64,000 nucleotides of DNA from a virus (IMGVR_UViG_3300026549_000034:129182-193181); one strand, 5' to 3'. Positions 2,720 to 40,359 are shown, counted from the stretch's first letter. Notes: generated by a model not told the origin, from the letters alone. Numbers and translations are program-made.

Positions 2720-4429
2720 TTATTTAGTTTCATTTGCTTTCTTTTCAGCTTCTTCTTTAAATTTCCATGACAATTCATCATCTAATACATGCTTCTTTGC
2801 TGGATTAATAAGATATCCCATTTTTGTCATGATGTCTCTATTAATAAGTATTTTTTGCTTTTTGTTTCTATTGTCAACTAAAGCAAATTCAGCATTTAAT
2901 AATTTACGTGATCCTATTTGAATACATGGTATAAGAACTGTTTTTCTATTTTCAGTTACTTGACCGACAATTGCATTTGATTCACCATGTTTCTTGAAAT
3001 AATATTTTTTGCCTTCAATTACTGCTTCAATTAAAGTACCGTTTTCTTCTAATGAATCACATCCAATTGTACTTGCCTTAGCACCATTTCCTGTATCAAA
3101 TTTTGCTTCAAGAGTAAATTGCTGTTCATTTTCTGTTGTAAATGTAATGTCTTCAAGATAACCTATTGATTTTGGTTCTAATACTAATTCATTTATATCA
3201 TTAATGTTGTCTAAAAGTATCTTTACAAAGTTTTCTCCAATTACTTCAGATATACCGTCAGTACCTGGTGAACTATTATATTCTAATACAACATTATCAC
3301 CAACTTCTGGATTACTTCCTGAAACTAACGGCATAATGTCTACAGCACACCATGGCATTCCAGATATTTTAGCAACCTTTAATGCAATTTCCTTTTGTTC
3401 TTCAGTCAGTTCAACCTTTTCTGCAGTTGCACCTAAAGATACATTACTTCTAAAATCACCAGATATCTTTACACGTTTCATAGCCGCAAGTATCTTTTGT
3501 TGTGTTCTCATAGTCAATACATGTACACGAATATCACCGCCATCAGCTTCTTCCTTCTTTTGTACTAACAATTCAAGATCTTCATCTACTGCAAACATTG
3601 CTTGAAGTATAGCTAAAATACCTTTACCATTTGTCATAAATACACCAGTACCGCCATGTCCATCAAGTATTTTTACAACATATTCAAACTTTTCATCTGC
3701 TTTTAAATCTTTACCAATTTCTTTATTTACTCTCTTAAGTTTCTTTGATAATGATTCTTCACCATTCTTAATATCATTTTTAGATACTAAAGTAAAACGT
3801 GGTTGTGGAATTTCATATCTTTCAAGTAATACTGCAGATGTATACTTATTAGATGCCTTCTTTGCCGATTGAATTGGATTTATTACAAAGAATCCCCATG
3901 CTTGAAGTTCTTTGATAAGTTCCATACATTCTTCGGATTCTTGAACTCCAAGACGAGTAATTACAATAGTATCAATATTTGATTGTTCATTGACTTTATA
4001 TTTTGTCTTATCATCACTAAATGAAATTTCTTTATCAGTAGCTTTATATGAAATTTCATCAGCAACAAATGTAAATATTTCTATATCTGTATTCTTTACA
4101 GCATCATTAAGATTTTTTAGAGTCTTATTTGTTTTTTCTTCTCTATCATTTGTAAAGAAAAGAATGTTCTTAAAGAAATAATTAGACTGTTCTATTTTGT
4201 CCTGAATACTATCTTTAGATTCAGAATCTTCCATTTTCTTATTAACTTCATCAGATATGTCATTATCATTTTTCTCATCAGGTTTATCATCCTTAATATC
4301 TAATAAATTGTCTAATTTAGTTTCTTCCTTAGTTTCTTCTTCCTTAATAATATTTTGTCTTTTCTGTTTAAGAGTTTCCATTACTTCTGCAATAGTTTCA
4401 GGATCTCTATAGTCATATTGCTTTTTCAT
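2720..4429 (-). CDS. RimK-like ATP-grasp ligase fused to C-terminal RimK-associated (retropepsin-like) protease domain
   Basis: VVKILDGHGGTGV, DIRVHV, DFRSNVSLG, AVDIM, LEYNSSPG (ATP-grasp); AKFDTGNGA..ILINRD (protease); acidic N-terminal extension. Confidence 0.85.
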   Translation of the reverse strand: MKKQYDYRDPETIAEVMETLKQKRQNIIKEEETKEETKLDNLLDIKDDKPDEKNDNDISDEVNKKMEDSESKDSIQDKIEQSNYFFKNILFFTNDREEKTNKTLKNLNDAVKNTDIEIFTFVADEISYKATDKEISFSDDKTKYKVNEQSNIDTIVITRLGVQESEECMELIKELQAWGFFVINPIQSAKKASNKYTSAVLLERYEIPQPRFTLVSKNDIKNGEESLSKKLKRVNKEIGKDLKADEKFEYVVKILDGHGGTGVFMTNGKGILAILQAMFAVDEDLELLVQKKEEADGGDIRVHVLTMRTQQKILAAMKRVKISGDFRSNVSLGATAEKVELTEEQKEIALKVAKISGMPWCAVDIMPLVSGSNPEVGDNVVLEYNSSPGTDGISEVIGENFVKILLDNINDINELVLEPKSIGYLEDITFTTENEQQFTLEAKFDTGNGAKASTIGCDSLEENGTLIEAVIEGKKYYFKKHGESNAIVGQVTENRKTVLIPCIQIGSRKLLNAEFALVDNRNKKQKILINRDIMTKMGYLINPAKKHVLDDELSWKFKEEAEKKANETK

Positions 4430-5063: not shown

Positions 5064-5927
5064 ATGTCAGCTAATTTATTTGAAAAATGTGAACCAATTT
5101 CTGCTATTTTAGCACCTCATGTACAGCAAATGATCATATCAGAATTAGAGGAATCATGTGATAATTTAGAATATCTGTGCATAGGTTCTGTAGGCAAGAA
5201 AAAGGATGAAGATTTTAATGGTGATATTGATATTGCTATTAAATGCAAAGATATTGAAGAACTTAAAAGAATAATATATCACACTTTTGGACATTTGAAT
5301 ATAGTTATATCTGAAACATTATATATTGTTTCTATAGAATATCCTTATATATATGATAATGAAGAAAAATATGTACAGTGTGATTTTATGGTGATGTGGT
5401 ATACTGATTATACTGCATTCAGATATTTTTGTCCAAACTATAGAAATGACGAATCAAAGTATAAAGTAGGTGCAAAAATAATGTTAACAAGTATTATATT
5501 AAATCATTGTATAAAAGAAAAAAATAAAGATTTGTTATATGATGAAATAGCTAAGTTTGATTTTAGACCTACTGCATTATATCGATTTATATATAGTAAT
5601 AGCAGAAAAGCATATAAAGAAGAATTTGTGACCGCTGACGTAAATAAAATTGTTGAAATGTGTTTTTATGATAATGATAGAAAACATTTTAATTCTGTTG
5701 AATCATTATGGGGTGCTATTCATAGTGATAATTTTAAATATTCTGATGAAGTAAAACAAATTGAAATGGTATGGTTTGTATGTTGTTTTAGAAAAGGATG
5801 GACCTCTATTGTTCCTGAAGATTTTAAAATAGAATATTGGACAAATGATCAAATATGGTATAATATAAATCAACAAAAAGAAATAAATAAAATAAATGAA
5901 TTTTTACAACAAGGTAAGGAAATATAA
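5064..5927 (+). CDS. nucleotidyltransferase (Pol beta superfamily)
   Basis: IGSVGKK...GDIDIAI (GS..DxD) plus a third Asp in VQCDF. Confidence 0.75.
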   Translation: MSANLFEKCEPISAILAPHVQQMIISELEESCDNLEYLCIGSVGKKKDEDFNGDIDIAIKCKDIEELKRIIYHTFGHLNIVISETLYIVSIEYPYIYDNEEKYVQCDFMVMWYTDYTAFRYFCPNYRNDESKYKVGAKIMLTSIILNHCIKEKNKDLLYDEIAKFDFRPTALYRFIYSNSRKAYKEEFVTADVNKIVEMCFYDNDRKHFNSVESLWGAIHSDNFKYSDEVKQIEMVWFVCCFRKGWTSIVPEDFKIEYWTNDQIWYNINQQKEINKINEFLQQGKEI

Positions 5928-5974
5928 ATATAAAAATTACTATATTAAAATAAATATATAAGATTAAAAAATAT

Positions 5975-6535
5975 ATGTATTTGCTAATTATTGAAGGTAC
6001 TGATAATATAGGTAAAGATACTTTGAAAAATCAATTGATAGATCTATTTGATACTGTTACATTAATTCATTGTAGTTCACCAAAATCAAGAGGATTTAAG
6101 TCTTATGAACAAGATAAGACATTCTTAACATATGCTGATAATATTGTAAATGGTGTATATGATGGAACGGAATGTATTATAATGAATAGATCACATTATG
6201 GAGAATATGTATATGGACAAATATATAGGCACAGAAATCCTATAGAAATTTCATCTATGATTAATGATTTTGATAAGCTAATAGATTCGAGAATTGATTT
6301 AAAAGTAAAATATATTCAATTATTAAGTACATCATTAGAATTAAGAAAGAAATATGATGACAATAAATCATTATCATTAATGGATGAACAAAAAATGGAA
6401 ATAGAAAATAAGCTTTTTATGGATGTATACAATCAATCAAAATTTGATAAAAAGCTTATATATGTAAATGACGGTGACAATTTTAGACGTAAAGAAGATA
6501 TTTATAAAGAAGCATTAGATTTTATAAATTCTTAA
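5975..6535 (+). CDS. dNMP/thymidylate kinase-like protein
   Basis: IIEGTDNIGKDT P-loop; NRSHYGEYVYG. Confidence 0.85.
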   Translation: MYLLIIEGTDNIGKDTLKNQLIDLFDTVTLIHCSSPKSRGFKSYEQDKTFLTYADNIVNGVYDGTECIIMNRSHYGEYVYGQIYRHRNPIEISSMINDFDKLIDSRIDLKVKYIQLLSTSLELRKKYDDNKSLSLMDEQKMEIENKLFMDVYNQSKFDKKLIYVNDGDNFRRKEDIYKEALDFINS

Positions 6536-6560
6536 AATTAGAAAAATATATAAAAGATAT

Positions 6561-7355
6561 ATGAATACAAAAGATATATTTAATATTTTTTTAGAAAAAT
6601 ATAATAATAGAGAATTTCGTACAATAGGTAATAATGTTCAGCAATCAATAACATTAGAAATTCAAAATGCCCATTTTGAAGTTGATAAACCATGGATTGT
6701 TAGAGAACCAAATTATGGCTATTATAAACGTGAAGAAAAATGGTATTATTCACAATCATTAAATGTTAATGATATTCCTGAAGGTGCACCAAAAATGTGG
6801 CAAGCTTGCGCAACACCAGATGGATTTATAAATTCTAATTATGGGTGGTGTATATTTTCAAAAGAAAATGGTGATCAGTATAAAAACTGTAAACAACATT
6901 TAATTGAAGATCCACATACTCGTGAAGCTATTATGATTTATAATCGTCCATCAATGCAACAAGAATATAATAAAAATGGAATGCATGATTTTATGTGTTG
7001 TCAGAATGTTCAATATTTTATAAATGAATATGATGAATATAATGATATACTTGATTGCATAGTTAATTTTAGAAGTAATGATGCAGTATTTGGATTTAAT
7101 AATGATGCACTTTGGGCAAATCATATATTAGAAAAACTTGCTAATGAATTAAGACCTATTTGGAATAATAAATATGATAAAAATATAGCGGCGGGTCATA
7201 TATATTGGAATGCCGGTTCATTACATATTTATGAAAGACATTTTAAAATTTTAACAGATTTTAATACTAAACAAAATGTCTATAAATATTATGAAGATAT
7301 TGAAAAACAAAATAACTTATTTAGAAAAACCCAAGAATCAATAAATAATGGATAA
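6561..7355 (+). CDS. dCMP hydroxymethylase-like enzyme (T4 gp42 family, thymidylate synthase fold)
   Basis: TREAIMIYNRPSM, DFMCCQNVQY, RSNDAVFGFNND (Asp at the dCMP-specificity position), GSLHIYERHF. Confidence 0.85.
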   Translation: MNTKDIFNIFLEKYNNREFRTIGNNVQQSITLEIQNAHFEVDKPWIVREPNYGYYKREEKWYYSQSLNVNDIPEGAPKMWQACATPDGFINSNYGWCIFSKENGDQYKNCKQHLIEDPHTREAIMIYNRPSMQQEYNKNGMHDFMCCQNVQYFINEYDEYNDILDCIVNFRSNDAVFGFNNDALWANHILEKLANELRPIWNNKYDKNIAAGHIYWNAGSLHIYERHFKILTDFNTKQNVYKYYEDIEKQNNLFRKTQESINNG

Positions 7356-7938
7356 AATTCGAGACATAAAATATAAGTTATTAAAAGAACTAAAATGGGA
7401 TCATATTAAAGAAACTGGATATGATTGTAATAGTGGTACAAAATATGTAGAGGTTAAAAATGCATTATTTGAAGTAGATAAAGACAGGATATTCAATACA
7501 ATTCCTCAACTTTCATATATGAGTCCACAATGGTATATAGATAATTATGATCCTATATTAAATAAGAATGATCAATTAAATAAATGTATAAGTAAATTAG
7601 TAGAAAATACAAATTCAAGACAAGCCGTTATTATAATGGGCGATACTAATGAATTTGATAATATAGATAATACTTTTATATGTACAATGTATATGCATAT
7701 ATTTCTAAATAAGATAAAATATGATGTATATGAATTAGAATATATTGTACATATGAGATCTAATGATTGTATAGAATTTATTACTGATTTACAATGGCAT
7801 AAGAAATTATATAATGATATCTTAAATCAATTAAGAGAAAAAACTAAATTAATGATTATGCCAAAAAATATTATATGGAATGCAGACACTATACATTTAT
7901 ATGAACAATTTTTTGAACAAGCATTAAAAGAATCTTAA
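7348..7938 (+). CDS. second, divergent thymidylate synthase/dCMP hydroxymethylase-fold protein
   Basis: SRQAVI, FICTMY, HMRSND..D.QW, IIWNADTIHLYE. Confidence 0.75.
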   Translation: MDKIRDIKYKLLKELKWDHIKETGYDCNSGTKYVEVKNALFEVDKDRIFNTIPQLSYMSPQWYIDNYDPILNKNDQLNKCISKLVENTNSRQAVIIMGDTNEFDNIDNTFICTMYMHIFLNKIKYDVYELEYIVHMRSNDCIEFITDLQWHKKLYNDILNQLREKTKLMIMPKNIIWNADTIHLYEQFFEQALKES

Positions 7939-7944
7939 TTTTAT

Positions 7945-8634
7945 ATGAAAAAACTTATTTCAGCTTCTATTATGTGTGCTAAGAACTTATTGAACTTAGA
8001 ACACGAAATTAAAGAACTAGAGAAAAACAATATTGATATGTTTCATCTAGATGCTATGGATGGACATTTTGTAAATAATATTACTTTTGGTCCAGACATA
8101 TTGAACGCTATTCATAAATGTGTTACAAAACCTTGTGATTATCATTTAATGATGGATGATCCTTTGACATTTATAGAACGTCTCGAGCTTTCGGCAGATG
8201 ATATTGTTACAATACATGCAGAAATTGATCCAGAAAAATTTGATGCAACTATAAAATATTTGAATTCTTTAAAGAAAAGAGGAATTAAGATTGGGGTTGC
8301 GATTAATCCAAAAACATCAATAGAAGGATTGTATGACTATTTGGAATATATAGACATGATATTAGTTATGCTTATTAATCCTGGATTTGCTGGTCAACCT
8401 ATTATTGGTGGTATTATGCAAAAGCCGATATATGTTCGTCAATATTTAGATTCTATAGGGTATGAAAATATAATGATATCTGTTGATGGCGGTGTATCTA
8501 ATGAACGTGCAGAAATATTAGCAAAAGGCGGTGTAAATGTATTTGTTGGCGGTACTTCTGGATTATTCAAAAGAAATCAAAATATTAAGACAAGTATTGA
8601 AAATTTACGAAAATCATTAAATACTTCTGATTGA
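7945..8634 (+). CDS. ribulose-phosphate 3-epimerase family protein, AlsE (allulose-6-P 3-epimerase)-like
   Basis: HLDAMDGHFV, DYHLM, NPGFAGQ, VDGG; SIMC and GTSGLF signatures recall AlsE rather than Rpe. Confidence 0.8.
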   Translation: MKKLISASIMCAKNLLNLEHEIKELEKNNIDMFHLDAMDGHFVNNITFGPDILNAIHKCVTKPCDYHLMMDDPLTFIERLELSADDIVTIHAEIDPEKFDATIKYLNSLKKRGIKIGVAINPKTSIEGLYDYLEYIDMILVMLINPGFAGQPIIGGIMQKPIYVRQYLDSIGYENIMISVDGGVSNERAEILAKGGVNVFVGGTSGLFKRNQNIKTSIENLRKSLNTSD

Positions 8635-8685
8635 AATTTCTATTTTTAATTAAAGAATTAATTGTTTTTAATATAATAAATTAAT

Positions 8686-10350
8686 ATGAAAGTATTTATA
8701 GCAACATCTGGTATAGGTTCTAGACTTTTAGAACTAACAAAATACACAAATAAGTCAATGATTAAGATAGGTAAGAAGCCAGTTATATCTTATATTATTG
8801 ATGAATATCCTGAAGATACAGAATTTGTAATTACTTTGGGATATTTTGGTGATCATGTACGGCAATATCTTGAATTGGCATATCCAAACAAGAAAATAAC
8901 ATTTGTAACAGTTGATAATTATGCAGGTCCAGGATCTTCACAAGTATATTCACAATTACAGGCAGAAAAATATCTTCAAGAGCCTTTTATATATCATGAT
9001 TGTGATACTATAATTGAGAATCTTCAGGATCAAATTCCAATGAAGTTCAATTATAATTTCTTAGTTGGATATGAGACAAATTCGGAATTATATGATGCAT
9101 TTGATTATGATATTAATACAAAGTCAAAATCAAAGAAGTACGAAGTATATGATTTGATTAAGACATATATGAAGCCAGATTCTTTAGTCGGTATGTTGGC
9201 TTTTGTCGGTATTTGTGGTATATATGATTATAAGGAATTTTGGAAATATATGCACATGGCTTATGAAAATGAACAAGTCCCTTATGATTTCTTAGTATAT
9301 CATAAATATGGTATGTTTAAAGATAATTTGAAAGCAATTAAGGTTACTAATTGGGTAGATACTGGAAATATAGCCGGTGTAAAGAATTATCGTAAGCAAT
9401 GTAAAGATCAATTTTTTATATTAGATAAGAATGATCAGGCAATTTTCATAATCAATAATAAAGTAATTAAGTTCTTTGCAAAAGATGGCGTTGTTGATGA
9501 TCTTTTGAAACATTATGAAACAATTAAAGATTTTTGTCAACCTATAACTGAACATACTAAGAATTTTATATGTTATGATTATATAGATGCTGAGGATGCT
9601 ATAGTAAAAATGAATCCTGTTCGTTTTGAAAATTTTTTATATTCATTAAAGAATAATAAATTTTGGTCTAAAGTAGAAAATATTGATGATAAATTGTTTT
9701 TTGAGTCTATGAAGAAATTCTATATAGACAAAAATATGCAACGGGTAAATCAATTTAAAGAATTCTATAAAGTATCTGAAGATGAAGACATATATGTAAA
9801 TGATATATTGATTCCTAAAGAATATACTATTGAAAGAATGCTTAATGAAATGATGAATATGAGAGAATGGAAAGAATCTGTTCCTTGTATTTGGCATGGT
9901 GATTTTGTATTAGACAATATTCTTTATAACCAAAAGGAAGATAAATATATTTTACTTGATTGGAGACCTAATTTTATAAACATTAAAGAATATGGAGATA
10001 GAAACTATGATTTTGGTAAAATGAATCATAATATTACTTTTAATTTCTATAGCGCATATAATGATCTCTATAATGTACAAATAAATGATAATAAGATTTA
10101 CATTAATATGCTTTGTAATAATTATGTATATGAATGTAAAGAAATATTAAAGAAATTTGTAAATGATAATTATAATGTAAGATTTGAATATATTGAAATG
10201 ATAACTGGTGCATGTTGGGTAAGTATGTCTCCATTATATTTCTTAAATCCTATTTCTAAACTATTGTTCTATATGGGTAAGCTTACTTTATATATTAATT
10301 TGATGAAGCTTCAAAATAAAAAAATAAATACTATATATGATGAATTATAA
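8686..10350 (+). CDS. sugar-phosphate nucleotidyltransferase fused to APH/choline-kinase-like phosphotransferase
   Basis: ATSGIGSRL..LTK..NKSM, DCD, WVDTGN; C-terminal HGDFVLDNIL, LLDWR, YDFGK. Confidence 0.85.
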   Translation: MKVFIATSGIGSRLLELTKYTNKSMIKIGKKPVISYIIDEYPEDTEFVITLGYFGDHVRQYLELAYPNKKITFVTVDNYAGPGSSQVYSQLQAEKYLQEPFIYHDCDTIIENLQDQIPMKFNYNFLVGYETNSELYDAFDYDINTKSKSKKYEVYDLIKTYMKPDSLVGMLAFVGICGIYDYKEFWKYMHMAYENEQVPYDFLVYHKYGMFKDNLKAIKVTNWVDTGNIAGVKNYRKQCKDQFFILDKNDQAIFIINNKVIKFFAKDGVVDDLLKHYETIKDFCQPITEHTKNFICYDYIDAEDAIVKMNPVRFENFLYSLKNNKFWSKVENIDDKLFFESMKKFYIDKNMQRVNQFKEFYKVSEDEDIYVNDILIPKEYTIERMLNEMMNMREWKESVPCIWHGDFVLDNILYNQKEDKYILLDWRPNFINIKEYGDRNYDFGKMNHNITFNFYSAYNDLYNVQINDNKIYINMLCNNYVYECKEILKKFVNDNYNVRFEYIEMITGACWVSMSPLYFLNPISKLLFYMGKLTLYINLMKLQNKKINTIYDEL

Positions 10351-11296
10351 TGACATAAAAATAGCTGGTGTAACATGTGCTTTTAATGAATCACAAATGG
10401 TAAAATACGTTATGCCATATTGGGAACGTATTAAGCCAGATAAATTAATTGTGTATGATAATATGTCAACTGATAATATGTGTGAACTATTAAGAAAATA
10501 TCCGTATGTAGAAATAAGAAAATTTGATACTGGCGGTAAATTTAGTGATGAAACACATATTAAAATAAAGTCAGAAACAGCCAAAGAATTAGCAGATGCT
10601 GGTTATGATTGGATTTATATAGGTGATTTTGATGAAATATTATATACAGAAAATGAAAACTTTAGAGAAGTATTATATGAAATTCAACAAATGGGCGGTA
10701 ATGTATTTTGTAGAGATATGGTATTACCGTTTGATACTACATTAGATGTTTCATTTGATACTAATAAATTACCTCATCAATGTGTACCGAATTATATTAC
10801 ATCTCATGATTGGTCTTCATTTTGGGGTTTTTCTAAAGTAACATTAATACATAAGTCAGTACCAAATATACGTTTTAACAATGGGTGTCATCAGGCATAT
10901 TTTCCGCAAAAAGGAAATGCTGATTTAGTTGTATTCGGATATCCTATTATTGGTATACATCTAAAATATATTGATTGGAATGTATTGGAAAAGAATTCAC
11001 ATGATAAGCATGATAGAATACAATGGAGAATTCCTGTAGCAAAATCAAAAGTTGATGTTCAATTTACAAAACATTTATATAGTAGATCATGTGGTATGAA
11101 TAATATAAACAACATGATATCTGCAATGAAGAAAAAATTTGATAAAGTAAATGTTAATGTAGATACAACAACTTGGGATAAGTTTAAAGAATATTATGAT
11201 AATGAATATGATGTAACAAAAGTTAAATTTAAGCAATATTTAAATAGAACAAATTTTATAACTAAAGATTATTATGAGACAAATAGAAATTCGTAA
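10337..11296 (+). CDS. glycosyltransferase family 2-like
   Basis: TCAFNE, IVYDNMSTD, DWIYIGDFDE (DxD). Confidence 0.8.
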   Translation: MMNYNDIKIAGVTCAFNESQMVKYVMPYWERIKPDKLIVYDNMSTDNMCELLRKYPYVEIRKFDTGGKFSDETHIKIKSETAKELADAGYDWIYIGDFDEILYTENENFREVLYEIQQMGGNVFCRDMVLPFDTTLDVSFDTNKLPHQCVPNYITSHDWSSFWGFSKVTLIHKSVPNIRFNNGCHQAYFPQKGNADLVVFGYPIIGIHLKYIDWNVLEKNSHDKHDRIQWRIPVAKSKVDVQFTKHLYSRSCGMNNINNMISAMKKKFDKVNVNVDTTTWDKFKEYYDNEYDVTKVKFKQYLNRTNFITKDYYETNRNS

Positions 11297-12623
11297 AGCA
11301 GAAAAGAACATTTTAATTGGTAAAATTGGAAAGTCAATTAAATTTAAACATTTGGATATTCGTATAGGCGGTGATGCTTGTATGATATTTTATTCATCAA
11401 TAGCAAGAATGAATCCGGAGTATAATTTCTTTTGGATTGGTCCTAATCAAATGAATAAATTAAGTGATGAAGAATATGATTATATCTTCCCAAATCATAA
11501 TGTATATTCAGCATATGATTCTAATTATGAAGATCCGAATCATCATCCTTTTTATCCTATTATTAAGTATTTTAAGGACAATAACATTAAGATAGATTTT
11601 GCATTACTTATGTCAGGAATGTGCTCTGGAATAAATGTACCTAACTTCTTAAGAAGTCCAAAGACAGGAGAATATGTAAAGATACTTAATGCATTCAAAA
11701 ATTATTGCGGTCCTTATATCTATACTCTTAATCAAACTGGAGTACCATTCTATCTTATTTCTGAAGATGCAAGATATATTACAACAAATGCTTCTGACTT
11801 ATATAATCGAGAAAGAATAATCTTCACACAGACTAATGGATATTTTGAACCAATAGAACATATTACTTCAGAAACTGATTGGACTAAGACTACAGAAAAA
11901 ATTAAATGTATATATGGATATGTAGAAAGAATATTCATGATGGGTCTTGATAAAAATTGGAAAGAAAATATTGATATTGACAGAAAGTTAAATAGTAAAG
12001 GAAATAGATTAATTGTAATATCTAATGGTTGTGGTCAAAAGGACATAAATCGTGCAAATGGTGGTAAAAGTTCACGTCTTCCTGGATATAAGAAATATAT
12101 TATAGACAATCTTAAGGGTACAGAATTTGAGAATACTAAGATATATGGACAATGGGACGATAAGACTTATGAAAAATATCCCCAAATAATTGATAAACCA
12201 TTAGTAGAACTTGATGATGAGGTGGCTGATGCAAGATATTCATTGGTATATTCTATTATGCCGGGCTTTGTAACCGTAAAAGCATGGGAAATGATTATCA
12301 AAGGTCTTATTCCATTTATTCATCCAGACTATGATAAAGACAGATTATTAGGTCTTCCAGAATATTGTTATCTTAAAGATGAAAAGGATCTATTAAACAA
12401 AATGAGAGAATTGGATTCAGATAATGACAAATATCTTAAGCTATTAAATGATTGTTTTGCATGTATTTCAGAAGATGATCTTAATGGAAAACGAATGAAT
12501 AACTTTATATTCAATAAGATTTCTGAAGATCTTGGATTTGATTATGTAGAAAAGAATGGTTGTGAATCTATTTTTGATCATTTCTCTAAAGATGTATTTG
12601 ATTTCAATAAGATTAAAAAGTAA
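11274..12623 (+). CDS. GT-B DNA glycosyltransferase, T4 beta-glucosyltransferase-like
   Basis: C-terminal GFVTVKAWEMIIKGLIPFIHPDYD...DLLNKMREL resembles the recalled BGT segment FITLRVWETMASDAVMLIDEEFD...ELIDRVNEL. Confidence 0.7.
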   Translation: MRQIEIRKAEKNILIGKIGKSIKFKHLDIRIGGDACMIFYSSIARMNPEYNFFWIGPNQMNKLSDEEYDYIFPNHNVYSAYDSNYEDPNHHPFYPIIKYFKDNNIKIDFALLMSGMCSGINVPNFLRSPKTGEYVKILNAFKNYCGPYIYTLNQTGVPFYLISEDARYITTNASDLYNRERIIFTQTNGYFEPIEHITSETDWTKTTEKIKCIYGYVERIFMMGLDKNWKENIDIDRKLNSKGNRLIVISNGCGQKDINRANGGKSSRLPGYKKYIIDNLKGTEFENTKIYGQWDDKTYEKYPQIIDKPLVELDDEVADARYSLVYSIMPGFVTVKAWEMIIKGLIPFIHPDYDKDRLLGLPEYCYLKDEKDLLNKMRELDSDNDKYLKLLNDCFACISEDDLNGKRMNNFIFNKISEDLGFDYVEKNGCESIFDHFSKDVFDFNKIKK

Positions 12624-12625
12624 GT

Positions 12626-13123
12626 ATGGATAAATGTATTGTTATAAGTGATGTAGACGGTTGCCTTACGGATGGCGGATTATACTATACTGAAGAAGGT
12701 AAAGTAATGAAACGTTTCGGTGCCGGTGATCATGAAGGTCTTAAATTATTGAAGAAAAATGGAATATCTGTAGAGTTCATTACTGCAGATAAAGTAGGAT
12801 ATCCTATTGTTGCTAAAAGAATGAAGGATATGTCTAATTCAACTATTCATATTTTTAATGAGATTGAAAGGTATGATTTTGTAAAGTCATTGAAAAACAA
12901 ATATGAAACTGTTGTATTCTTTGGTGATGGGCCTGGCGACGCTTCATTAGCAAGTAAGATGGCATGTGATATATTTGTATGTCCTAATCAATCTCGACAG
13001 GAGGTAAAGCTTGTAGCTGATTATATTACTGAAACAGATGGTGGACATGGCGCATTCTTAGACATGGCAATATGGGTATCTAAAAAAATAAATAAAGAAA
13101 ATTATAAAGAATTATATGACTAA
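12626..13123 (+). CDS. KdsC-like HAD sugar-phosphate phosphatase
   Basis: DVDGCLTDGGLYY, FFGDGPGD, GGHGAF. Confidence 0.85.
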   Translation: MDKCIVISDVDGCLTDGGLYYTEEGKVMKRFGAGDHEGLKLLKKNGISVEFITADKVGYPIVAKRMKDMSNSTIHIFNEIERYDFVKSLKNKYETVVFFGDGPGDASLASKMACDIFVCPNQSRQEVKLVADYITETDGGHGAFLDMAIWVSKKINKENYKELYD

Positions 13124-14396
13124 TAATATAAAATGGGCAGCAATACAACCATTGACTGGTGGTCTATATTTAGGAACAGAAGAAGCTATAGGTCATCCAG
13201 CAGAATGGATATTGACATATAAAGGATTAAATACAATTAAAAAGGATAAAGCCGATAATGTTACTGGTGTAGGTAATGAAGCATATCTATTAAACTATCT
13301 ACATAAAGTTGATAGGGAAGTACCATATTATCAAATGAATAGAAAAATGTTTGATACTAATTTGGATGATATGAATCCGGAAATATTACTTAATGATGAA
13401 CCTGCTAAGCCAAATTATGAAAATTTAGATTTAGTAGTTGCATTACCGGTATGTAGTGGATTATCTATGGTTACATCTGCTGGACAAGAAACAAAAGACG
13501 GTCGTAATTGTAATATGCTTTATTTAGCAAAATTGGCATTAACAACAATCAAACCAAAAATTTATATATTCGAAAACGCTCCTACTTTTATGGGTGAACG
13601 TGGTGATAGTTTACGAGTTAGTTTTGAAAAACTTGCTAAAGATAATGGTTATTTAATTGTATATTATAAGACAGATACACATAAACATTATAATTGTCAA
13701 CGACGTCCAAGAACTTTTATATTTTTTATAAGAAAGGATGTAACAAATAATCAATTGCCTGTATTAGATTTTGAAGACAAACCAATGTCTATTCAAGAAT
13801 TTTTCGACAATATTCCTTATGGTTTGACTAATCAAGAAGAATGTAAGCCACGTCCTCATAATTATATATTATTAGATTTCTTCAAAGAAAAATATGGAGA
13901 GGAATGGTTTAAGACATTAGACAATAAGTGCTTAATGAAATTGATAGTAACAGATAAACTATTTGATGAATTATTTGAATATTGTAAGACTTATACAAAA
14001 ATATCTGAAGATGATATGAATAAGTCTATAAAATATTTTAAGCATGTAAAAGATAAGACTGACAGGAAGTTAAATTGGTTTGGTTCAGATATAGTATTTT
14101 ATAAAAAGGAATTACCGTCAGTACAATTTAGAAGTATTACAACAACGATGCATCCAAATTGTAAACGAGTATTGACTATAAGAGAAAATCTTGAATTAAT
14201 GGGAATGCCACATGATTTTGATTGGTTTGGGGATGAATCTAATCTCCCTAAAATTGCACAAAATGTTCCTGTAAAAACAGCTAAATTTATAATGTCGCAA
14301 GCAGTCAATATATTAGAAAATAATATCAATATATTTATGGATGGTAATGTTTTATACATAAATAACATTAATAACAAAATTCAGTTAGTGGCATAA
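13116..14396 (+). CDS. atypical C5-cytosine DNA methyltransferase-like protein
   Basis: LPVCSGLS (motif IV), IFENA (VI), QRRPR (VIII), RVLTIRE..LMGMPHDF (IX), AQNVP (X); motif I reads QPLTGG. Confidence 0.75.
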   Translation: MTNNIKWAAIQPLTGGLYLGTEEAIGHPAEWILTYKGLNTIKKDKADNVTGVGNEAYLLNYLHKVDREVPYYQMNRKMFDTNLDDMNPEILLNDEPAKPNYENLDLVVALPVCSGLSMVTSAGQETKDGRNCNMLYLAKLALTTIKPKIYIFENAPTFMGERGDSLRVSFEKLAKDNGYLIVYYKTDTHKHYNCQRRPRTFIFFIRKDVTNNQLPVLDFEDKPMSIQEFFDNIPYGLTNQEECKPRPHNYILLDFFKEKYGEEWFKTLDNKCLMKLIVTDKLFDELFEYCKTYTKISEDDMNKSIKYFKHVKDKTDRKLNWFGSDIVFYKKELPSVQFRSITTTMHPNCKRVLTIRENLELMGMPHDFDWFGDESNLPKIAQNVPVKTAKFIMSQAVNILENNINIFMDGNVLYINNINNKIQLVA

Positions 14397-14418
14397 AAAC
14401 AATTATTCTTTTTATATG

Positions 14419-14447
14419 AAATGAGGATCTTAAAGATCCTCATTTTT
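14419..14447 (+). terminator. intrinsic terminator
   Basis: aaatgaggatct-taa-agatcctcattttt. Confidence 0.75.
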
Positions 14448-14481
14448 ATTTTTAAATATAAGAATATGAAACAAAATATTA

Positions 14482-15549
14482 ATGAAAATTTTTCAAATAT
14501 TATTAAATAAAACAAAAAATAGTTCATATAGATATGCTGAAGAATTATATCTATCATTATCATCTATAGAAGATATTGATATTGACCAAAGTATAATAGT
14601 TGATAAAAGTGAATTTAATCCAGATTTGATAGATATAATTAATTCTTATGATTACGTTTTTATTCATTCAATATCAAAAGATAAAGATTTATATAACATA
14701 TTAATAAATTTTATTAAACCTAAAAAGATATTATTTATTACTCATACTATATTAAAGCAATGGCATAATGATATTAATTTATCATATATTATTCCATTAT
14801 TGCGAAATGTAAGTAAAATAGTAATTAATCCACTTGCATTAGATATAATAAATGAAATTAAGGAAAAAATATCTGATGATCAGTTTAACAAAAAATATGT
14901 AGAACTTAAATATGTTTATAATTTTTATTTGTTTAATACAATAAATAAAGATAATATCATATCAATGATATCAAATAAGGGAGTACGAACTAATTATGAT
15001 TTATTCATTAATTTATTTAAAAACAAAGAAATATTAAATAGAGATTTTATTTGGAAATTATACGGTGTAACAAAGAACATTCAAACTTATTATATTAATG
15101 ATTTATATATAAACAATAAAACACAAAAACCTTCATTAATAACTAATTTTGATACAACAGTTATTTCAAAAAATATGATAAATGTATATGGAGAAATAGA
15201 CAGAAATACATATAAAGAAGTTATAGAAAAATCATTATTTACATGCAATTTTGATAATGAATCTTATATAAGTTATAATATAATAGATATAATAGGCAAT
15301 GGATCTATTCCAATAATGTCAAAAACTGTAGCGCAAAACATAAGAATAAATCAAAAACAAACATTATATGATCTTAAATGCGGTATATTTATTAATGATA
15401 CATTTGATGAACAAGCTATAATAACTATAAATAAATTAGTACAAAGTCCTAATACATACATAAATACATTAAATAAGCATGTAAATATTTTTAAACAAAT
15501 TTTCAATAATTCAGAAACAATCAATAAATTATTACAAAATATAATATGA
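14482..15549 (+). CDS. divergent GT-B glycosyltransferase, T4 alpha-glucosyltransferase-like
   Basis: YDYVFIHS..IKPKKILFITH and YNIIDIIGNGSIPIMSK resemble recalled AGT segments DILIINS..IKP..VVYQH and YTHLELGACGTIPVFWK. Confidence 0.55.
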   Translation: MKIFQILLNKTKNSSYRYAEELYLSLSSIEDIDIDQSIIVDKSEFNPDLIDIINSYDYVFIHSISKDKDLYNILINFIKPKKILFITHTILKQWHNDINLSYIIPLLRNVSKIVINPLALDIINEIKEKISDDQFNKKYVELKYVYNFYLFNTINKDNIISMISNKGVRTNYDLFINLFKNKEILNRDFIWKLYGVTKNIQTYYINDLYINNKTQKPSLITNFDTTVISKNMINVYGEIDRNTYKEVIEKSLFTCNFDNESYISYNIIDIIGNGSIPIMSKTVAQNIRINQKQTLYDLKCGIFINDTFDEQAIITINKLVQSPNTYINTLNKHVNIFKQIFNNSETINKLLQNII

Positions 15550-16250
15550 AAAACATAAATAATTACATATCAGAGAAGCTCAATATAAAAAATATTAAAG
15601 TACATCAATATAAGTATTTTCCAAAGACAAAAGAAGAACTTAGAAAAATCTTAGAAAAAAGATTAGATGAAGACAATAATGCGGATTTGAATGATATTGA
15701 TGTTAGTGAAATAACTGATATGTCATTACTATTTAATAAGTTAGATCCACATAATATAAATATATCTGGCTGGGATGTAGGTAATGTTACTGCAATGGGT
15801 GCAATGTTTAATGGATGTGATAATTTTAATTCTGACTTAAGTAAATGGGACGTTAGTAAGGTTACTAATATGGATTCAATGTTTGCTGATTGTGGAGAAT
15901 TTAATTCTGATCTAAGTGAATGGGATGTATCTAAAGTTACAAATATGCAAGCTATGTTTACTAGATGTCATAAACTTGATACCGACTTAAATAAATGGGA
16001 TGTATCTAATGTTACTGGAATGGATTCAATATTTTATGGTTGTAATAACTTTAATTCTGACTTAAGCAATTGGAATGTATCTAATGTTACTGATATGTAT
16101 AAAATGTTTTATGATTGTAACAGCTTTAATTCTGATCTAAGTAAATGGGATGTAAGTAATGTTACTGATATGCGTAATATGTTTTTTGGATGTGATTCGC
16201 TAAAAAATAAACCAAGCTGGTACAAGAATAAAATAAAAATTAAAAAATAA
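15546..16250 (+). CDS. DUF285/BspA-like repeat protein with leader
   Basis: 25-aa repeats WDVSNVTxMxxMFxxCxxFNSDLSK; leader MKNINNYISEKLNI. Confidence 0.9.
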   Translation: MKNINNYISEKLNIKNIKVHQYKYFPKTKEELRKILEKRLDEDNNADLNDIDVSEITDMSLLFNKLDPHNINISGWDVGNVTAMGAMFNGCDNFNSDLSKWDVSKVTNMDSMFADCGEFNSDLSEWDVSKVTNMQAMFTRCHKLDTDLNKWDVSNVTGMDSIFYGCNNFNSDLSNWNVSNVTDMYKMFYDCNSFNSDLSKWDVSNVTDMRNMFFGCDSLKNKPSWYKNKIKIKK

Positions 16251-16271
16251 TATATAATATATATAAATGAT

Positions 16272-16955
16272 ATGAAAAACCTAAAAGACGTCATTATAGA
16301 GAAGCTCAATATAAAAAATATTAAAATACAATATACTTGTCATCCAAAAACAAAAGTAGAACTTCAATTAATATTGAGAGAAAGACTATCAAAAGATAAT
16401 AATGCTAATTTGAATGATATTGATGTTAGTGATATAACCGATATGTCTAATTTATTTGAAAAATTAAATCCTCATAATATAGATATATCTGAATGGAATG
16501 TATCAAATGTTATCAATATGAGTTATATGTTTTATGATTGTCAAAATTTTAACTGTGACTTAAGTAAATGGGACGTAAGTAATGTTACAAATATGATAAA
16601 TATGTTTTATGATTGCAAAGAATTTAATTCTGACTTAAGCAAATGGAATGTAAGTAATGTTAAAAAAATGAATGGTACATTTGCTGGCTGTATAAAATTT
16701 AATTCTGATCTAAGCAATTGGGATGTTAGTAATGTTAATAATATGGGTGGACTATTTGCTAGATGCCAAAATTTTAATGCAGATCTAAGTAATTGGAATG
16801 TATCTAATGTTCAAAACATGGTAAATATGTTTTATGAATGTGAAAAATTTAAAGGCAAAGGATTAGAAAAATGGAAACCAACCAAATTATTAATATATAA
16901 GAATATATTTTATAAGACTCAATTAGAAAAAAATCCTCCAAAATGGTATAAATAA
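16272..16955 (+). CDS. DUF285/BspA-like repeat protein with leader
   Basis: same repeats; leader MKNLKDVIIEKLNI. Confidence 0.9.
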   Translation: MKNLKDVIIEKLNIKNIKIQYTCHPKTKVELQLILRERLSKDNNANLNDIDVSDITDMSNLFEKLNPHNIDISEWNVSNVINMSYMFYDCQNFNCDLSKWDVSNVTNMINMFYDCKEFNSDLSKWNVSNVKKMNGTFAGCIKFNSDLSNWDVSNVNNMGGLFARCQNFNADLSNWNVSNVQNMVNMFYECEKFKGKGLEKWKPTKLLIYKNIFYKTQLEKNPPKWYK

Positions 16956-16996: not shown

Positions 16997-17029
16997 AAAG
17001 GGAATTTCTTTTGAAAGAAATTCCCTTTT
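16997..17029. terminator. bidirectional intrinsic terminator
   Basis: aaagggaatttcttt-tg-aaagaaattcccttt between convergent genes. Confidence 0.8.
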
Positions 17030-20798: not shown

Positions 20799-21464
20799 AT
20801 GTTAAGTAAAATTGATAAAATATACATTATATCATATACTAAAAATGATATATCACGACAACATATAAAAGAACAACTTAATTATCATGGAATAACTGAC
20901 TTTGAATTTATATATACTTATAATGTATCTGAAAATATTATAAACAACCCACATAATCTTAGTATTCAGCACCTAAGTGTATCTTTTACTCATTATGATA
21001 TTATTAAGAAAAGTTATGAATTAGGATTAGAAAGAATACTTATTTTTGAAGATGATGTACTTTTTCTACAAGACAAAAAGTTATTTAATGAAGTTTTGAA
21101 TAAAGGTATAGAATCATCTGCGGACATATATATGTATGATTATAGTAAAAGAAATACAAATATAGAAAATGTATATGCTTTTATATTAACATCAGGATAT
21201 ATGCTAAATAGAAATGGTATGAAGTTTATGATTGATAATTATGAAAATGACCCATTTATAATTGATGAATATTTTTATTATGATGAAACAAATAAATACT
21301 TTATAGATAATATATATTTTAATTTAAATAAAAATTCATTTACTTTATATATTCAGAATAGAAATACAACACTTAAATATGCTGATATACATTTATGTCA
21401 TCAAGGACCTAATTATTATGTAGAAAATGATAATATAAATGAAGACTTATATTTTAAATATTAA
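20799..21464 (+). CDS. glycosyltransferase family 25-like
   Basis: KIYIIS, THYDIIKKS, ILIFEDD, GYML. Confidence 0.75.
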   Translation: MLSKIDKIYIISYTKNDISRQHIKEQLNYHGITDFEFIYTYNVSENIINNPHNLSIQHLSVSFTHYDIIKKSYELGLERILIFEDDVLFLQDKKLFNEVLNKGIESSADIYMYDYSKRNTNIENVYAFILTSGYMLNRNGMKFMIDNYENDPFIIDEYFYYDETNKYFIDNIYFNLNKNSFTLYIQNRNTTLKYADIHLCHQGPNYYVENDNINEDLYFKY

Positions 21465-21523: not shown

Positions 21524-23425
21524 ATGACAAAGAAAATTGAAGAAAAGTATACATCAATGTCAGAACGTCAACATATATTAAGTCGTTCTGGAATGTATAT
21601 TGGTTCTATTAAAGAGGAGGAAAATCAAGTATTTATATATGATGCTGATGAAAATAAGATGATTATGAAGGATGTCATCTATTCACCAGCAATGCTTAAA
21701 TTGTTTGATGAAATATTGTCAAACTCATGTGATGAATTCCGTCGCAAAGATAATATGGGATTGACAACTATATCTATACTAATAGATAGAACAACAAATG
21801 CAATTACTATTGAAGACAACGGCGGTATTCCTATTGTAAAGCATAAGGAAGCAAAAGTATATGTTCCTGAATTTATTTTTGGACAACTTAGAACATCTTC
21901 AAACTATGATGATACTGAAGATAGAAATGTTATTGGAACAAATGGTCTTGGTTCAGTATTAAGTAATATCTTTTCAAAAAAGTTTATTGTAGAATCCGCG
22001 GACAAGAAAAACAAACTTCATGTAGAATGGACGGATAATATGGAGCATAAATCTGAACCAGTAATCAGTAAATGTTCAGATCATTATACAAAAACTACAT
22101 TCTATATTGATTTTGATAGGTTTGACCAAAAGACATTCGGTATTACTGATGATTTTGTATCTATACTTCATAAACGTTGTATAGATGCTGCAGCAGCTAA
22201 TTTGGGATTAACTATTAACTTTACTGAAAAAACAAAAGAAACAACAAATAAGAATAAATGGAAGTTTAAGAAGTTTGAAGAATACATGGAACTTTATTCA
22301 GACTACATTGATCTTTCATGTATTATATCTTATAAGGATAATAAAAAACAAATTTGGATATGCCCGGACAGTGAAGTTGATGTGGCATTTGTAAATGGTG
22401 CGGAATGTTCAAAAGGTACACATATCAAAGCAGTAAGATATCCAGTAGGTCATGTCATTACTGAAATACTTAAAAAGAAACATAAGATAGATGTAACTAA
22501 TAAAGCAATAGATACTAAATATGGAGTGTTTGGAATATTTGATATAAGTAATCCAACATATAGTTCACAGACTAAAGAAGAACTTACAAATTCACAAGAT
22601 AGCTTCTATAAGGATGGATCGGAATTCAAATTGTCTGATGACTTTCTTAAGAAATGCCAGAAATCAGAAATTGTTGATCTGGTAATAGATTGGTATAAGA
22701 AAAAATGTGAAGCAGAAGATCAAGCAAAAATCCGTAAACTTAATCGTGAAGCAAAGAAACTATTAAGATCTGACAAATTTATTAATTGTACATCAAAGAA
22801 AAATAGAGAAAAAGAACTCTGGGTCTATGAGGGAGACTCCGCCCACACAGGATTCAGAATGGCAAGAAATCCACAAACACAAGCAAGTTATAGAATGAGA
22901 GGAGTACCTTTAAATTGTATTGGTATGACAGCAACGCAGGTAATGAAAAACCAAGTATTTAATGATATAGTAAATATTATTGGTCTACAATGGGGTCAAT
23001 ATAATAATGTAGATGATTTGAAATTTGGTAAGTTCATTATTACTTCTGATGCTGACTATGATGGTGATAAGATTGCAAGTCTATTACTTGTATTTGCTAT
23101 GCATTTTCCTGAGCTGTTTGATCAAGGATTTATATATAGGGTTGTTACCCCAATTATAACAGCAACTAAAGGAAAAGACCATAGAGTTTATTATACCAGA
23201 GAAGAATATGAAAAAGATTCTAAAAAACTTAAAGGATATGTCATAAAGTATTTGAAAGGAGTAGGTACACAAACTAATGCAGATACTAAAGAAATGATGA
23301 CAAATCCTAAACTTATTAAATTTACTAAAGACAATATGGCTGAACTTATGATTAAGAAATGGTTTGGTAAGGGTGAAGCAAGTACAAGAAAGAGTATATT
23401 AAAAGATGATGTAGAAGCAGAATAA
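21524..23425 (+). CDS. type II DNA topoisomerase, ATPase/TOPRIM subunit (T4 gp39+gp60/GyrB-like)
   Basis: HILSRSGMYIGS, FDEILSN, GTNGLG, EGDSA, DADYDG, YLKGVG. Confidence 0.95.
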   Translation: MTKKIEEKYTSMSERQHILSRSGMYIGSIKEEENQVFIYDADENKMIMKDVIYSPAMLKLFDEILSNSCDEFRRKDNMGLTTISILIDRTTNAITIEDNGGIPIVKHKEAKVYVPEFIFGQLRTSSNYDDTEDRNVIGTNGLGSVLSNIFSKKFIVESADKKNKLHVEWTDNMEHKSEPVISKCSDHYTKTTFYIDFDRFDQKTFGITDDFVSILHKRCIDAAAANLGLTINFTEKTKETTNKNKWKFKKFEEYMELYSDYIDLSCIISYKDNKKQIWICPDSEVDVAFVNGAECSKGTHIKAVRYPVGHVITEILKKKHKIDVTNKAIDTKYGVFGIFDISNPTYSSQTKEELTNSQDSFYKDGSEFKLSDDFLKKCQKSEIVDLVIDWYKKKCEAEDQAKIRKLNREAKKLLRSDKFINCTSKKNREKELWVYEGDSAHTGFRMARNPQTQASYRMRGVPLNCIGMTATQVMKNQVFNDIVNIIGLQWGQYNNVDDLKFGKFIITSDADYDGDKIASLLLVFAMHFPELFDQGFIYRVVTPIITATKGKDHRVYYTREEYEKDSKKLKGYVIKYLKGVGTQTNADTKEMMTNPKLIKFTKDNMAELMIKKWFGKGEASTRKSILKDDVEAE

Positions 23426-23513
23426 TTAATTATAAAGGAGATATTTTTTATCTCTTTTATATTAAATTGCAAAAATAATATTATTATTAATTAAATAATA
23501 TAATTATTAAATT

Positions 23514-23720
23514 ATGAGATATATAGTTAAAAAGAATATATATACAAATGAAATTGAAGATTGTTGGGATTCATTAAAAAAATGTGCAGATGAAATTGGA
23601 GTAAAACCGCCAACAATTAAACAAGCAATTCGTACAAAAGGTAAATGTAAAAATTATTTTTTTGCATATAAAGAATTAGACAAAAAATATATTTTAGAAT
23701 TATTAAAAAATGACAGATAA
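23514..23720 (+). CDS. NUMOD1-like HTH protein (homing-endonuclease DNA-binding module)
   Basis: WDSLKKCADEIGVKPPTIKQAIR..GKCKNYFF. Confidence 0.6.
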   Translation: MRYIVKKNIYTNEIEDCWDSLKKCADEIGVKPPTIKQAIRTKGKCKNYFFAYKELDKKYILELLKNDR

Positions 23721-23880
23721 TGATGCTATAAATTGTTGGACTATACGAGATGTATTGAAACGAAATACTGCTAAACAAAACAATTTAAATTATTTGAAAT
23801 TTTTTACTATATTAGAATTAGAAAATTGGTTAAAAACATATGAAGCAGAATCAAAACATTACGGAGAGAACAATATCTAA
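23710..23880 (+). pseudogene. probable C-terminal remnant of a homing endonuclease (ORF not in the supplied track)
   Basis: manual translation MTDNDAINCWTIRDVLKRNTAKQNNLNYLKFFTILELENWL..., resembling Vsr/DUF559-like nuclease C-termini. Confidence 0.45.
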
Positions 23881-40186: not shown

Positions 40187-40359
40187 CAGAATATAAGGCA
40201 ATGCCAAAATATCTAAATCAAAATATAGATTTGGATCATTGGAGACTATTCATTATTATAGTTTCCAAACATACTAAAAATATATGAGAAATAGAGGCTA
40301 TGACAAAGCAAAATTTCGTTTTTTATAATTTTAAGTTACAGTCTTTATTCTGTAACTAA

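Follow-up and report, generated by a model that had tools for sequence, protein, structure and literature searches.

A candidate cytosine hypermodification operon with its own sugar-activation genes in an uncultured phage

Gene content and limits of the operon

The DNA analyzed here, referred to as the window, is the last 64 kb (64,000 nucleotides) of IMGVR_UViG_3300026549_000034, a single-contig IMG/VR virus record (193,181 bases; 26.7% G+C). Positions 5064-15549 of the window hold 11 open reading frames (ORFs), all on the + strand, which a first-pass annotation of the sequence had read as a DNA hypermodification operon with its own pathway to a nucleoside diphosphate (NDP)-sugar. That reading is well supported by a T4 gp42-type residue signature, by two GT-B glycosyltransferases whose best matches are the DNA glucosyltransferases of phage T4, and by recurrent synteny. 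The gene list of the annotation also held: all ten gene types were located on the + strand, at or near the positions assigned to them, by Pfam, PHROG, and NCBIfam scans and by predicted folds. Its left edge did not, since the ORF at 5064-5927 is not the nucleotide kinase, which lies at 5975-6535.

Nine of the genes run from 5975 to 14396. The first is the kinase, a Tmk-like P-loop enzyme and putative 5-hydroxymethyl-dCMP (5-hm-dCMP) kinase, recognized by hhalign alignment to RB69p045. It is followed by a gp42-type dCMP hydroxymethylase, or 5-hm-dCMP synthase, of the thymidylate synthase (TS) fold (6561-7355; termed TS264), recognized by its identity to gp42 and its residue signature, and by a short TS-fold paralog of 196 amino acids (7348-7938; PF00303, 28.6 bits). 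Then come a sugar-phosphate 3-epimerase of the Rpe/AlsE family (7945-8634; PF00834, E = 2e-48); a fusion, identified with Pfam and NCBIfam models, of an N-terminal sugar-1-phosphate nucleotidyltransferase (NT) with a C-terminal kinase resembling APH and fructosamine kinases (8686-10350); a GT2-like glycosyltransferase of the GT-A type (10337-11296; PF13704, 43.7 bits against a cut-off of 27.5); a GT-B protein with a predicted fold like that of T4 β-glucosyltransferase (BGT), the putative glycosyltransferase for 5-hydroxymethylcytosine (hmC) in DNA (11274-12623); a HAD-IIIA sugar-phosphate phosphatase of the KdsC/KDN-9-P type (12626-13123; TIGR01670, E = 2e-20); and a C5-cytosine-methyltransferase (MTase)-like protein (13116-14396; PF00145, 58.5 bits against a cut-off of 22).

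A terminator-like hairpin with a 13-pair stem and a T run follows at 14418-14446 (+), and no such hairpin was found in any intergenic gap before 14418. A close relative (G001), on a 410-kb contig rated 97% complete, carries at locus L002 exactly the nine genes of 5975-14396, in the same order and at 49-84% identity, and the end of this synteny coincides with the hairpin. Given the packed or overlapping ORFs, the terminal hairpin, and the synteny with L002, we place the conserved operon at 5975-14396. Promoter-like sites were not found above chance. The source genome (G000) is ~68% complete by the CheckV estimate; as its close relative occupies a 97%-complete 410-kb contig, the source virus is probably a jumbo phage.

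Two of the 11 ORFs, the first and the last, were not found in this relative. The first (5064-5927, 287 amino acids), which we regard as an accessory gene, has a motif like that of polymerase-β-type nucleotidyltransferases (GS...DIDI); it had no match in Pfam, PHROG, or NCBIfam and no informative one among PDB sequences, and it is absent from the syntenic relatives L002/L016 and from L015. The last (14482-15549) encodes a GT-B protein resembling T4 α-glucosyltransferase (AGT) in its predicted fold. The annotation had named it correctly but had counted it as part of the operon, from which it is separated by the hairpin; it is lineage-specific and belongs to a separate transcription unit. Two DUF285/BspA-like repeat proteins (15546-16955, +) are encoded directly downstream of the AGT-like gene and overlap it, and a second terminator-like hairpin (16997-17028) closes this unit.

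Hydroxymethylcytosine synthesis, transferases, and the recurrent core

Residue criteria for TS homologs that modify cytosine come from work on RB69 and DLP3; with residues numbered as in E. coli ThyA, dCMP specificity shows as N177D, a non-methyl product as L143D/E, and a 5-hydroxy-dCMP synthase as D169N (PMC13326640). Both TS paralogs of the window were aligned with E. coli ThyA, T4 gp42, and RB69 gp48. TS264 has C146, W80, Y94, H207, and Y209, carries L143D and N177D, and keeps D169, which is the signature of T4 gp42; it is 47% identical to that protein, 45% identical to gp42 of a T4-like Aeromonas phage, and 22% identical to RB69 gp48. At position 169 both window paralogs have Asp where RB69 gp48 has Asn, and the D169N mark of a gp48-type 5-hydroxy-dCMP synthase thus occurs in neither. 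As the residues of TS264 are those of T4 gp42 and D169 is retained, the predicted base is hmC, in agreement with the first-pass call of a gp42-like hydroxymethylase with Asp. The same annotation had RB69-type phages arabinosylating hmC, which is out of date: the base that RB69 arabinosylates is 5-hydroxycytosine, not hmC (PMC13326640). The hmC signature is present in the TS of 23 related loci as well as in the window, and every TS found carries it.

The Tmk-like kinase aligned with RB69p045, annotated as a "thymidylate kinase," at an hhalign probability of 95% (E = 3e-8), and its orthologs adjoin the TS gene in L002, L005, L007, L015, L020, L021, and L026. From these sequence comparisons we strongly infer that the gp42-type TS and the kinase bring hmC into the phage DNA. 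The short TS paralog keeps C146, R126, R166, S167, D169, an Asp at 177, H207, and Y209, is without the W80 segment, has L143T and G173E, and is restricted to the window phage and its closest relative (L002/L016); it might pair with TS264 in a heterodimer, or it might be a folate-independent enzyme. Divergent from the operon, at 2720-4429 on the - strand, lies the gene of a 569-residue ATP-grasp glutamate ligase of the RimK/MptN family, which keeps its position in L015, L016, and L020. Among the best models for this protein are glutamate ligases acting on cofactors of the pterin type and on F420, and it might polyglutamylate the folate that the TS homologs use or have a part in the modification pathway.

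With regard to control of the dCTP pool, no recognizable MazG-type dCTPase was found in G000 or in G001. Outside the window (G000:C1:99647-101197; L046, 148-1698), a GT2-family glycosyltransferase gene is followed directly by a gene for a Dut-family dUTPase with an N-terminal extension of ~55 residues. The Dut protein is 41% identical to a Dut protein encoded beside the cluster in L005, and it is a candidate dCTPase/dUTPase for the pathway. A dCMP deaminase is encoded in the window at 42723-43292 (+; PF00383, E = 2e-24), as in T4; this family had no match in the 97%-complete relative.

The two ORFs without a family match (11274-12623 and 14482-15549) were folded from family alignments. The AlphaFold model of the BGT-like protein has a pLDDT of 92.9, and among solved chains T4 BGT entries took Foldseek ranks 1 to 4. 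Superposition on T4 BGT with VIA-align gave a Z score of 21.9 and a root mean square deviation (rmsd) of 3.8 over 309 of 333 residues, with the next match at Z 18.0. The protein had no Pfam match at E ≤0.01; its invariant K336 and E339 align with BGT R269 and E272, which bind UDP (hhalign, 40% probability over 62 columns). For the AGT-like protein (pLDDT 85.3), T4 α-glucosyltransferase (1y6f_A) was matched at Z 29.0 and rmsd 3.9 over 338 residues, with the next match at Z 20.2; its atlas neighbors are viral proteins of the GT1 family. The GT2-like gene has an ortholog in L002/L016 only and is absent from L015 and from loci of the L005/L007 type; its product possibly adds a second sugar. A GT25-family glycosyltransferase is encoded at 20799-21464 (+), just upstream of the type II topoisomerase genes (21524-25240), and represents a fourth glycosyltransferase class within 11 kb. 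Further sugars, or a greater variety of them, may come from this enzyme and from the GT2-like and AGT-like ones.

Homologs of the BGT-like protein number more than 350 at an identity of at least 47%, and the contigs that carry them reach 442 kb. We mapped 30 loci (27 from IMG/VR and three from assemblies, L003, L005, and L007) with small family hidden Markov models (HMMs). A recurrent core emerged, consisting of the gp42-type TS, the BGT-like glycosyltransferase, and the C5-MTase-like protein; the first two co-occur in 22 of the 30 loci. The epimerase, the NT/kinase fusion, and the KdsC-like phosphatase form a module found at seven loci only (the window, L015, L016, L021, L005, L007, and L023), always accompanied by the BGT-like gene. 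By this distribution, the sugar module is an optional add-on to a conserved core in which the MTase-like gene is the partner of the BGT-like gene, a point that the first-pass annotation had not made. Loci with a TAGT-family transferase are mostly without the MTase-like gene. Parts of the system also occur in deposited phages: Pseudoalteromonas phage vB_Psh_XG4 (PP712099) has TS, NT/kinase-like, BGT-like, and MTase-like genes and lacks the epimerase; in Enterococcus phage Planchet, genes for a kinase, a "pyrimidine hydroxymethylase," and a dUTPase occur with an NT/kinase-like and a BGT-like gene, and there is no MTase-like gene; and cyanophage S-TIM5 has the MTase-like gene alone, with no BGT-like gene within ~9 kb. 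The Planchet protein PLANC_62 (L044, 6368-7999), annotated as "Glycosyltransferase," scored 99 bits with the NT/kinase family HMM and also matched nucleotidyltransferase models of NCBIfam; by these matches it belongs to the NT/kinase fusion family and is of the sugar-1-phosphate nucleotidyltransferase type. Its gene is a neighbor of the BGT-like and pyrimidine hydroxymethylase genes.

The MTase-like protein has all of the C5-MTase motifs examined, namely, I, IV (with the catalytic Cys), VI (with the Glu of ENV), VIII (QxRxR), IX, and X, in the forms PLTGG, PVCSGLS, ENAP, QRRPRTF, TIRE, and QNVP. The corresponding set PL[TIV]GG, PxC[AS]GLS, ENAP, RxRxF, T[IV]RE, and QNVP is conserved across the family, phages XG4 and S-TIM5 included. 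Identity with CmoX, a cytosine C5-carboxymethyltransferase with an SPPC motif and an Arg at the position of HhaI N304 (PMC12783734), was considered and rejected, as the window protein has PVCSG in place of SPPC and the Asn of QNVP in place of that Arg. In most loci the MTase-like gene is adjacent to the BGT-like gene, often with overlapping ORFs, and this tight pairing, together with duplication of the pair in some loci, suggests from gene arrangement a coupled function. A predicted complex of the two proteins scored 0.00, which counts neither for nor against it. The doubled pairs, in L007 (8609-17377) and L021 (1222-9993), flank the sugar module, which suggests two modification specificities in one phage.

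Enzymes of sugar activation

The NT/kinase fusion is distantly related, in both of its halves, to a split gene of RB69. Its kinase half aligned with RB69p052 at an hhalign probability of 86% over 243 columns and its NT half with RB69p053 at 63%, and there was no similarity to these counterparts at the level of BLAST. Orthologs of the fusion are 80% identical in L002 and 29% identical in L005. The phosphatase scored 73.2 bits with TIGR01670, below the subfamily cut-off of 106.95, and the resemblance is therefore one of family; its ortholog in L005 is 49% identical. No specific relation to RB69p051 was found (hhalign, 3% probability). With the epimerase in the place of the RB69 isomerase, two of the four sugar enzymes are non-orthologous to the RB69 set, which fits a different substrate. 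A Kdo-type pathway, as the KdsC-like phosphatase might suggest, was rejected: the cluster has no KdsA- or KdsB-type gene, and the CMP-Kdo route needs no kinase. Among deposited phages, the homolog search gave a single relative of the fusion, in Marine virus AG-345-E15 (L001, 7707-19211). It lies within a large sugar-nucleotide island, with an APH-type kinase, a HAD protein, two SDR epimerases/dehydratases, a GHMP kinase, and a 2-oxoglutarate oxygenase. The part of this locus that was examined showed neither a TS nor a BGT-like gene.

The epimerase (7945-8634) bears on the nature of the sugar. Its best match in the PDB is E. coli AlsE (3ct7, 137.7 bits), with S. pyogenes Rpe at 127.3 bits. The resemblance to AlsE that the first-pass annotation had seen in the motifs SIMC and GTSGLF is real in alignment: GGTSGLF of the window protein aligned without a gap to VGTSGLF of AlsE (HMMER), and the Rpe proteins 2fli, 7b1w, and E. 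coli Rpe needed a gap of one residue. Chan et al. reportedly found in 2008 that the loop after strand β8 is one residue longer in AlsE than in Rpe (T196-S197-G198), and this extra residue is said to lengthen the phosphate site for a six-carbon substrate. We surveyed the loop in 120 aligned sequences, adding to 114 database homologs the window protein, three of its relatives, and E. coli AlsE and Rpe as anchors. The long form was present in all but E. coli Rpe and one homolog, P0231, which groups with E. coli Rpe in a tree; the distant linked epimerases of L005, L007, L021, and L023 have the long loop too.

Two kinds of gene context bear on the same question. A long-loop protein of Tepidanaerobacter, annotated as "Rpe," is encoded in a mannose-family phosphotransferase system (PTS) operon with two SIS proteins, a context of hexose-phosphate catabolism. 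In three of the phage relatives (L005, L007, and L021) a SIS protein adjoins the epimerase, and that of L005 scored 110 bits with 6-phospho-3-hexuloisomerase against 21 bits with the arabinose-5-phosphate isomerase KpsF/GutQ. Taken together, the loop, the SIS partners, and the PTS context favor, as far as sequence can indicate, a hexulose-6-phosphate route to a sugar of the allulose or allose type over a pentose route.

A two-stage model, its alternatives, and known systems

Gene content, residue signatures, folds, and synteny are direct observations; from them every substrate, and the sugar itself, is inferred. We read the operon at 5975-14396, with moderate confidence, as a two-stage cytosine hypermodification system with a rare hexose on hmC as the favored product. 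The broader statement, that an hmC glycosylation system with a phage-made donor exists here, is quite likely. The narrower one, that the sugar is six-carbon and derived from allulose-6-phosphate, is tentative, and we put it somewhat short of an even chance. In the first stage, before replication, the gp42-type TS would turn dCMP into 5-hm-dCMP, the Tmk-like kinase would carry this toward the triphosphate, and hmC would enter the phage DNA. In the second stage, on DNA, the BGT-like GT-B enzyme would put the sugar of the phage-made NDP-sugar on the hydroxymethyl group. To make this donor, the AlsE-type epimerase would act on a host ketose phosphate, most likely converting fructose-6-phosphate to allulose-6-phosphate. 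The kinase half of the fusion would phosphorylate the anomeric position and the KdsC-like phosphatase would take off the terminal phosphate, in either order, before the NT half forms the NDP-sugar. Direct use of the ketose would give a product of the psicofuranose (allulose) type. An intervening isomerase, which would be a host enzyme for this phage and a phage SIS protein for some relatives, would give one of the allose type.

Several observations weigh against this model. The epimerase passed the Rpe subfamily cut-off only; its scores with the Rpe and AlsE equivalog models were nearly alike, and it fell below the cut-offs of both, with 177.1 bits against 271 for AlsE (NF007266) and 184.7 bits against 212.6 for Rpe (TIGR01163). 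In a quick tree anchored with E. coli AlsE and Rpe it did not join AlsE, which lay outside the clade of the window protein, although both anchors were on long branches. AlsE and Rpe are also said, again by Chan et al. in 2008, to be mutually promiscuous. The first-pass view that the epimerase recalls AlsE more than Rpe thus stands on the best PDB match and the β8 loop and fails on the equivalog cut-off, and the phylogeny that it had proposed as a check gave no grouping with AlsE; the single short-loop homolog, P0231, grouped with E. coli Rpe. No aldose-ketose isomerase (SIS, PF01380) was found in G000 or G001, and a tblastn search of the 193 kb with RB69p055 gave no match. Without a phage isomerase, an aldose product would depend on the host for that step, and an NDP-donor with a ketose would be out of the ordinary; the proposal of a dedicated rare NDP-sugar is favored by the loop and the SIS partners and is weakened by the lack of such an isomerase in the lineage. 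At 40% probability, the similarity of the BGT-like protein to BGT is weak at the level of sequence. Finally, with only a Dut-family gene and no MazG-type dCTPase, complete replacement of cytosine is not assured, and complete replacement would leave a C5 methyltransferase nothing to act on. A C5-MTase-like enzyme that is catalytically intact fits poorly with DNA substituted at every cytosine C5, and two readings of it remain, partial replacement of cytosine or another activity on modified DNA.

The first of these has a substantial chance of being correct, although we would not bet on it. Replacement by hmC would be partial, and the MTase-like protein would be an ordinary S-adenosylmethionine (SAM)-dependent enzyme making 5-methylcytosine (5mC) from the remaining cytosine, so that virion DNA holds both glycosyl-hmC and 5mC. 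This concerns the role of the MTase only and is compatible with our explanation of the other genes. The conservation of all catalytic and SAM-binding motifs speaks for it, as do the lack of a detected MazG-type dCTPase and the presence of the same MTase subfamily in S-TIM5 without a nearby BGT-like gene; the close pairing with the BGT-like gene, in many cases with overlap, the two copies of the pair in both L007 and L021, which point to a coupled function, and the recurrence beside the cluster in relatives of a Dut-family gene, a potential dCTPase, speak against it.

A pentose on the base in place of the hexose of our model is unlikely. In such a route an ordinary Rpe would convert xylulose-5-phosphate to ribulose-5-phosphate, thereby only feeding the pathway, a host isomerase of the KdsD or Rpi type would supply arabinose-5-phosphate or ribose-5-phosphate, and an NDP-pentose would be formed as in RB69 and HY126, giving arabinosyl- or pentosyl-hmC. 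The epimerase does pass the cut-off of the Rpe subfamily model NF004076 (185.6 bits against 165), the RB69 enzyme distantly related to the NT/kinase fusion acts on arabinose-5-phosphate (PMC13326640), and pentose-modified cytosine is documented in several phages (PMC12838424). Against these points stand the AlsE-length loop in all of the linked epimerases, a SIS partner in relatives that is hexuloisomerase-like rather than KpsF/KdsD-like, a phosphatase of another HAD subfamily than RB69p051, and the lack of any phage isomerase found in the lineage (G000 and G001).

C5-MTases perform atypical reactions in vitro. In an elaboration of the hexose model that we consider improbable, psicofuranose or allose on hmC would be accompanied by a non-methylating MTase-like partner, whose covalent Cys-C6 chemistry would act on hmC or glycosyl-hmC, for instance to exchange or install a group at the 5-CH2, as a counterpart in nature of such reactions. 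It is very unlikely that the sugar genes serve auxiliary metabolism or the glycosylation of proteins or the host surface while the hmC transferases use host UDP-glucose: the fusion homolog of AG-345-E15 does sit in a general sugar-nucleotide island, and many loci have TS, BGT-like, and MTase-like genes with no sugar module, but in at least three diverged lineages, represented by seven loci, the module is interleaved with those genes in one operon, ORFs overlap and the intergenic gaps before 14418 gave no terminator-like hairpin, and among the transferases it is the BGT-like one that is present wherever the module is.

The two-stage model can be set beside several known systems. With the T-even phages the window phage shares a gp42-type hydroxymethylase with the same specificity residues, two GT-B enzymes nearest in predicted structure to T4 BGT and AGT, and a dCMP deaminase. 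T4 uses host UDP-glucose, whereas the window phage encodes its own sugar-activation module; its kinase is Tmk-like, it has additional C5-MTase-like, GT2-like, and short TS-fold proteins, and no gp56-type dCTPase was found. The Afh system of RB69, DLP3, and HY126 follows the same general logic with a similar set of genes, for a TS homolog, a Tmk-like kinase, a bifunctional NT/kinase to which the window fusion is distantly related, a HAD phosphatase, GT-B enzymes, and an enzyme drawing off a ketose phosphate of the host (PMC13326640); the biochemistry of the RB69 AfhE-type kinase/nucleotidyltransferase has been published in the same work. The base there is 5-hydroxycytosine (D169N), in contrast to the hmC type predicted here (D169 kept), and the entry enzyme is an arabinose-5-phosphate isomerase in place of an AlsE-type 3-epimerase. 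The window phage further differs in its KdsC-type phosphatase, related to RB69p051 by the HAD fold only, its BGT-like transferase, and its MTase-like core protein.

Similar chemistry occurs in angustmycin (psicofuranine) synthesis by AgmD, AgmC, and AgmB, in which an AlsE-like epimerase makes allulose-6-phosphate from fructose-6-phosphate and activation of the anomeric carbon C2 is followed by loss of the 6-phosphate to a HAD phosphatase (PMC8599513). Activation is there by a pyrophosphokinase resembling phosphoribosyl pyrophosphate synthetase and transfer is to adenine, with no NDP-sugar, glycosyltransferase, or DNA involved (PMC8599513), which makes it a chemical precedent only. In the C5-MT/TET/GT clusters for post-replicative glycosylation of hmC (PMC8256090; bioRxiv 10.1101/2023.12.21.572611) an enzyme of the C5-MTase family is likewise encoded beside DNA glycosyltransferases; in the window phage hmC would come from the TS homolog, and no TET/JBP gene was detected, in a search whose control likewise gave no match. 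Proximity of GT-B genes to those for ThyS, methyltransferases, and APH phosphotransferases had been seen before in a metagenomic survey (PMC8256090; bioRxiv 10.1101/2023.12.21.572611). No report of an AlsE-type route, or of an allulose-, psicose-, or allose-type sugar on DNA, was found in the literature searched. The strategy itself is known from T4 and RB69; with an AlsE-type entry enzyme and a different phosphatase, the system described here is a parallel to the RB69/HY126 route.

The phage is not a relative of T4, since tblastn searches of the 193 kb gave no homologs of T4 gp41, gp43, gp44, gp61, gp62, or UvsX, and SbcCD-like genes were the sole matches; nor was near-identical DNA found among deposited phages. 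The neighborhood of the cluster is one of DNA metabolism, with type II topoisomerase subunits, the dCMP deaminase, and RtcB. The RtcB RNA ligase is encoded at 27873-29204 (+; PF01139, E = 2e-50), and ARAGORN predicted a phage tmRNA at 39834-40187 (+) with the tag peptide DDTTTYRMAA.

Allulose or allose on hmC, if true, would be without precedent as a sugar on DNA. Whether a given restriction, CRISPR, or type IV system can attack a phage is decided by the sugar coat of its DNA, and the enzymes that make them supply tools for hmC mapping. As the cultured Pseudoalteromonas phage vB_Psh_XG4 carries the core, part of the model can be tested at the bench. The analysis also exposes a widely conserved pairing of C5-MTase-like and BGT-like genes next to an hmC synthase. 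The cluster type is common in uncultured large phages, and it predicts a sugar on DNA other than glucose and arabinose.

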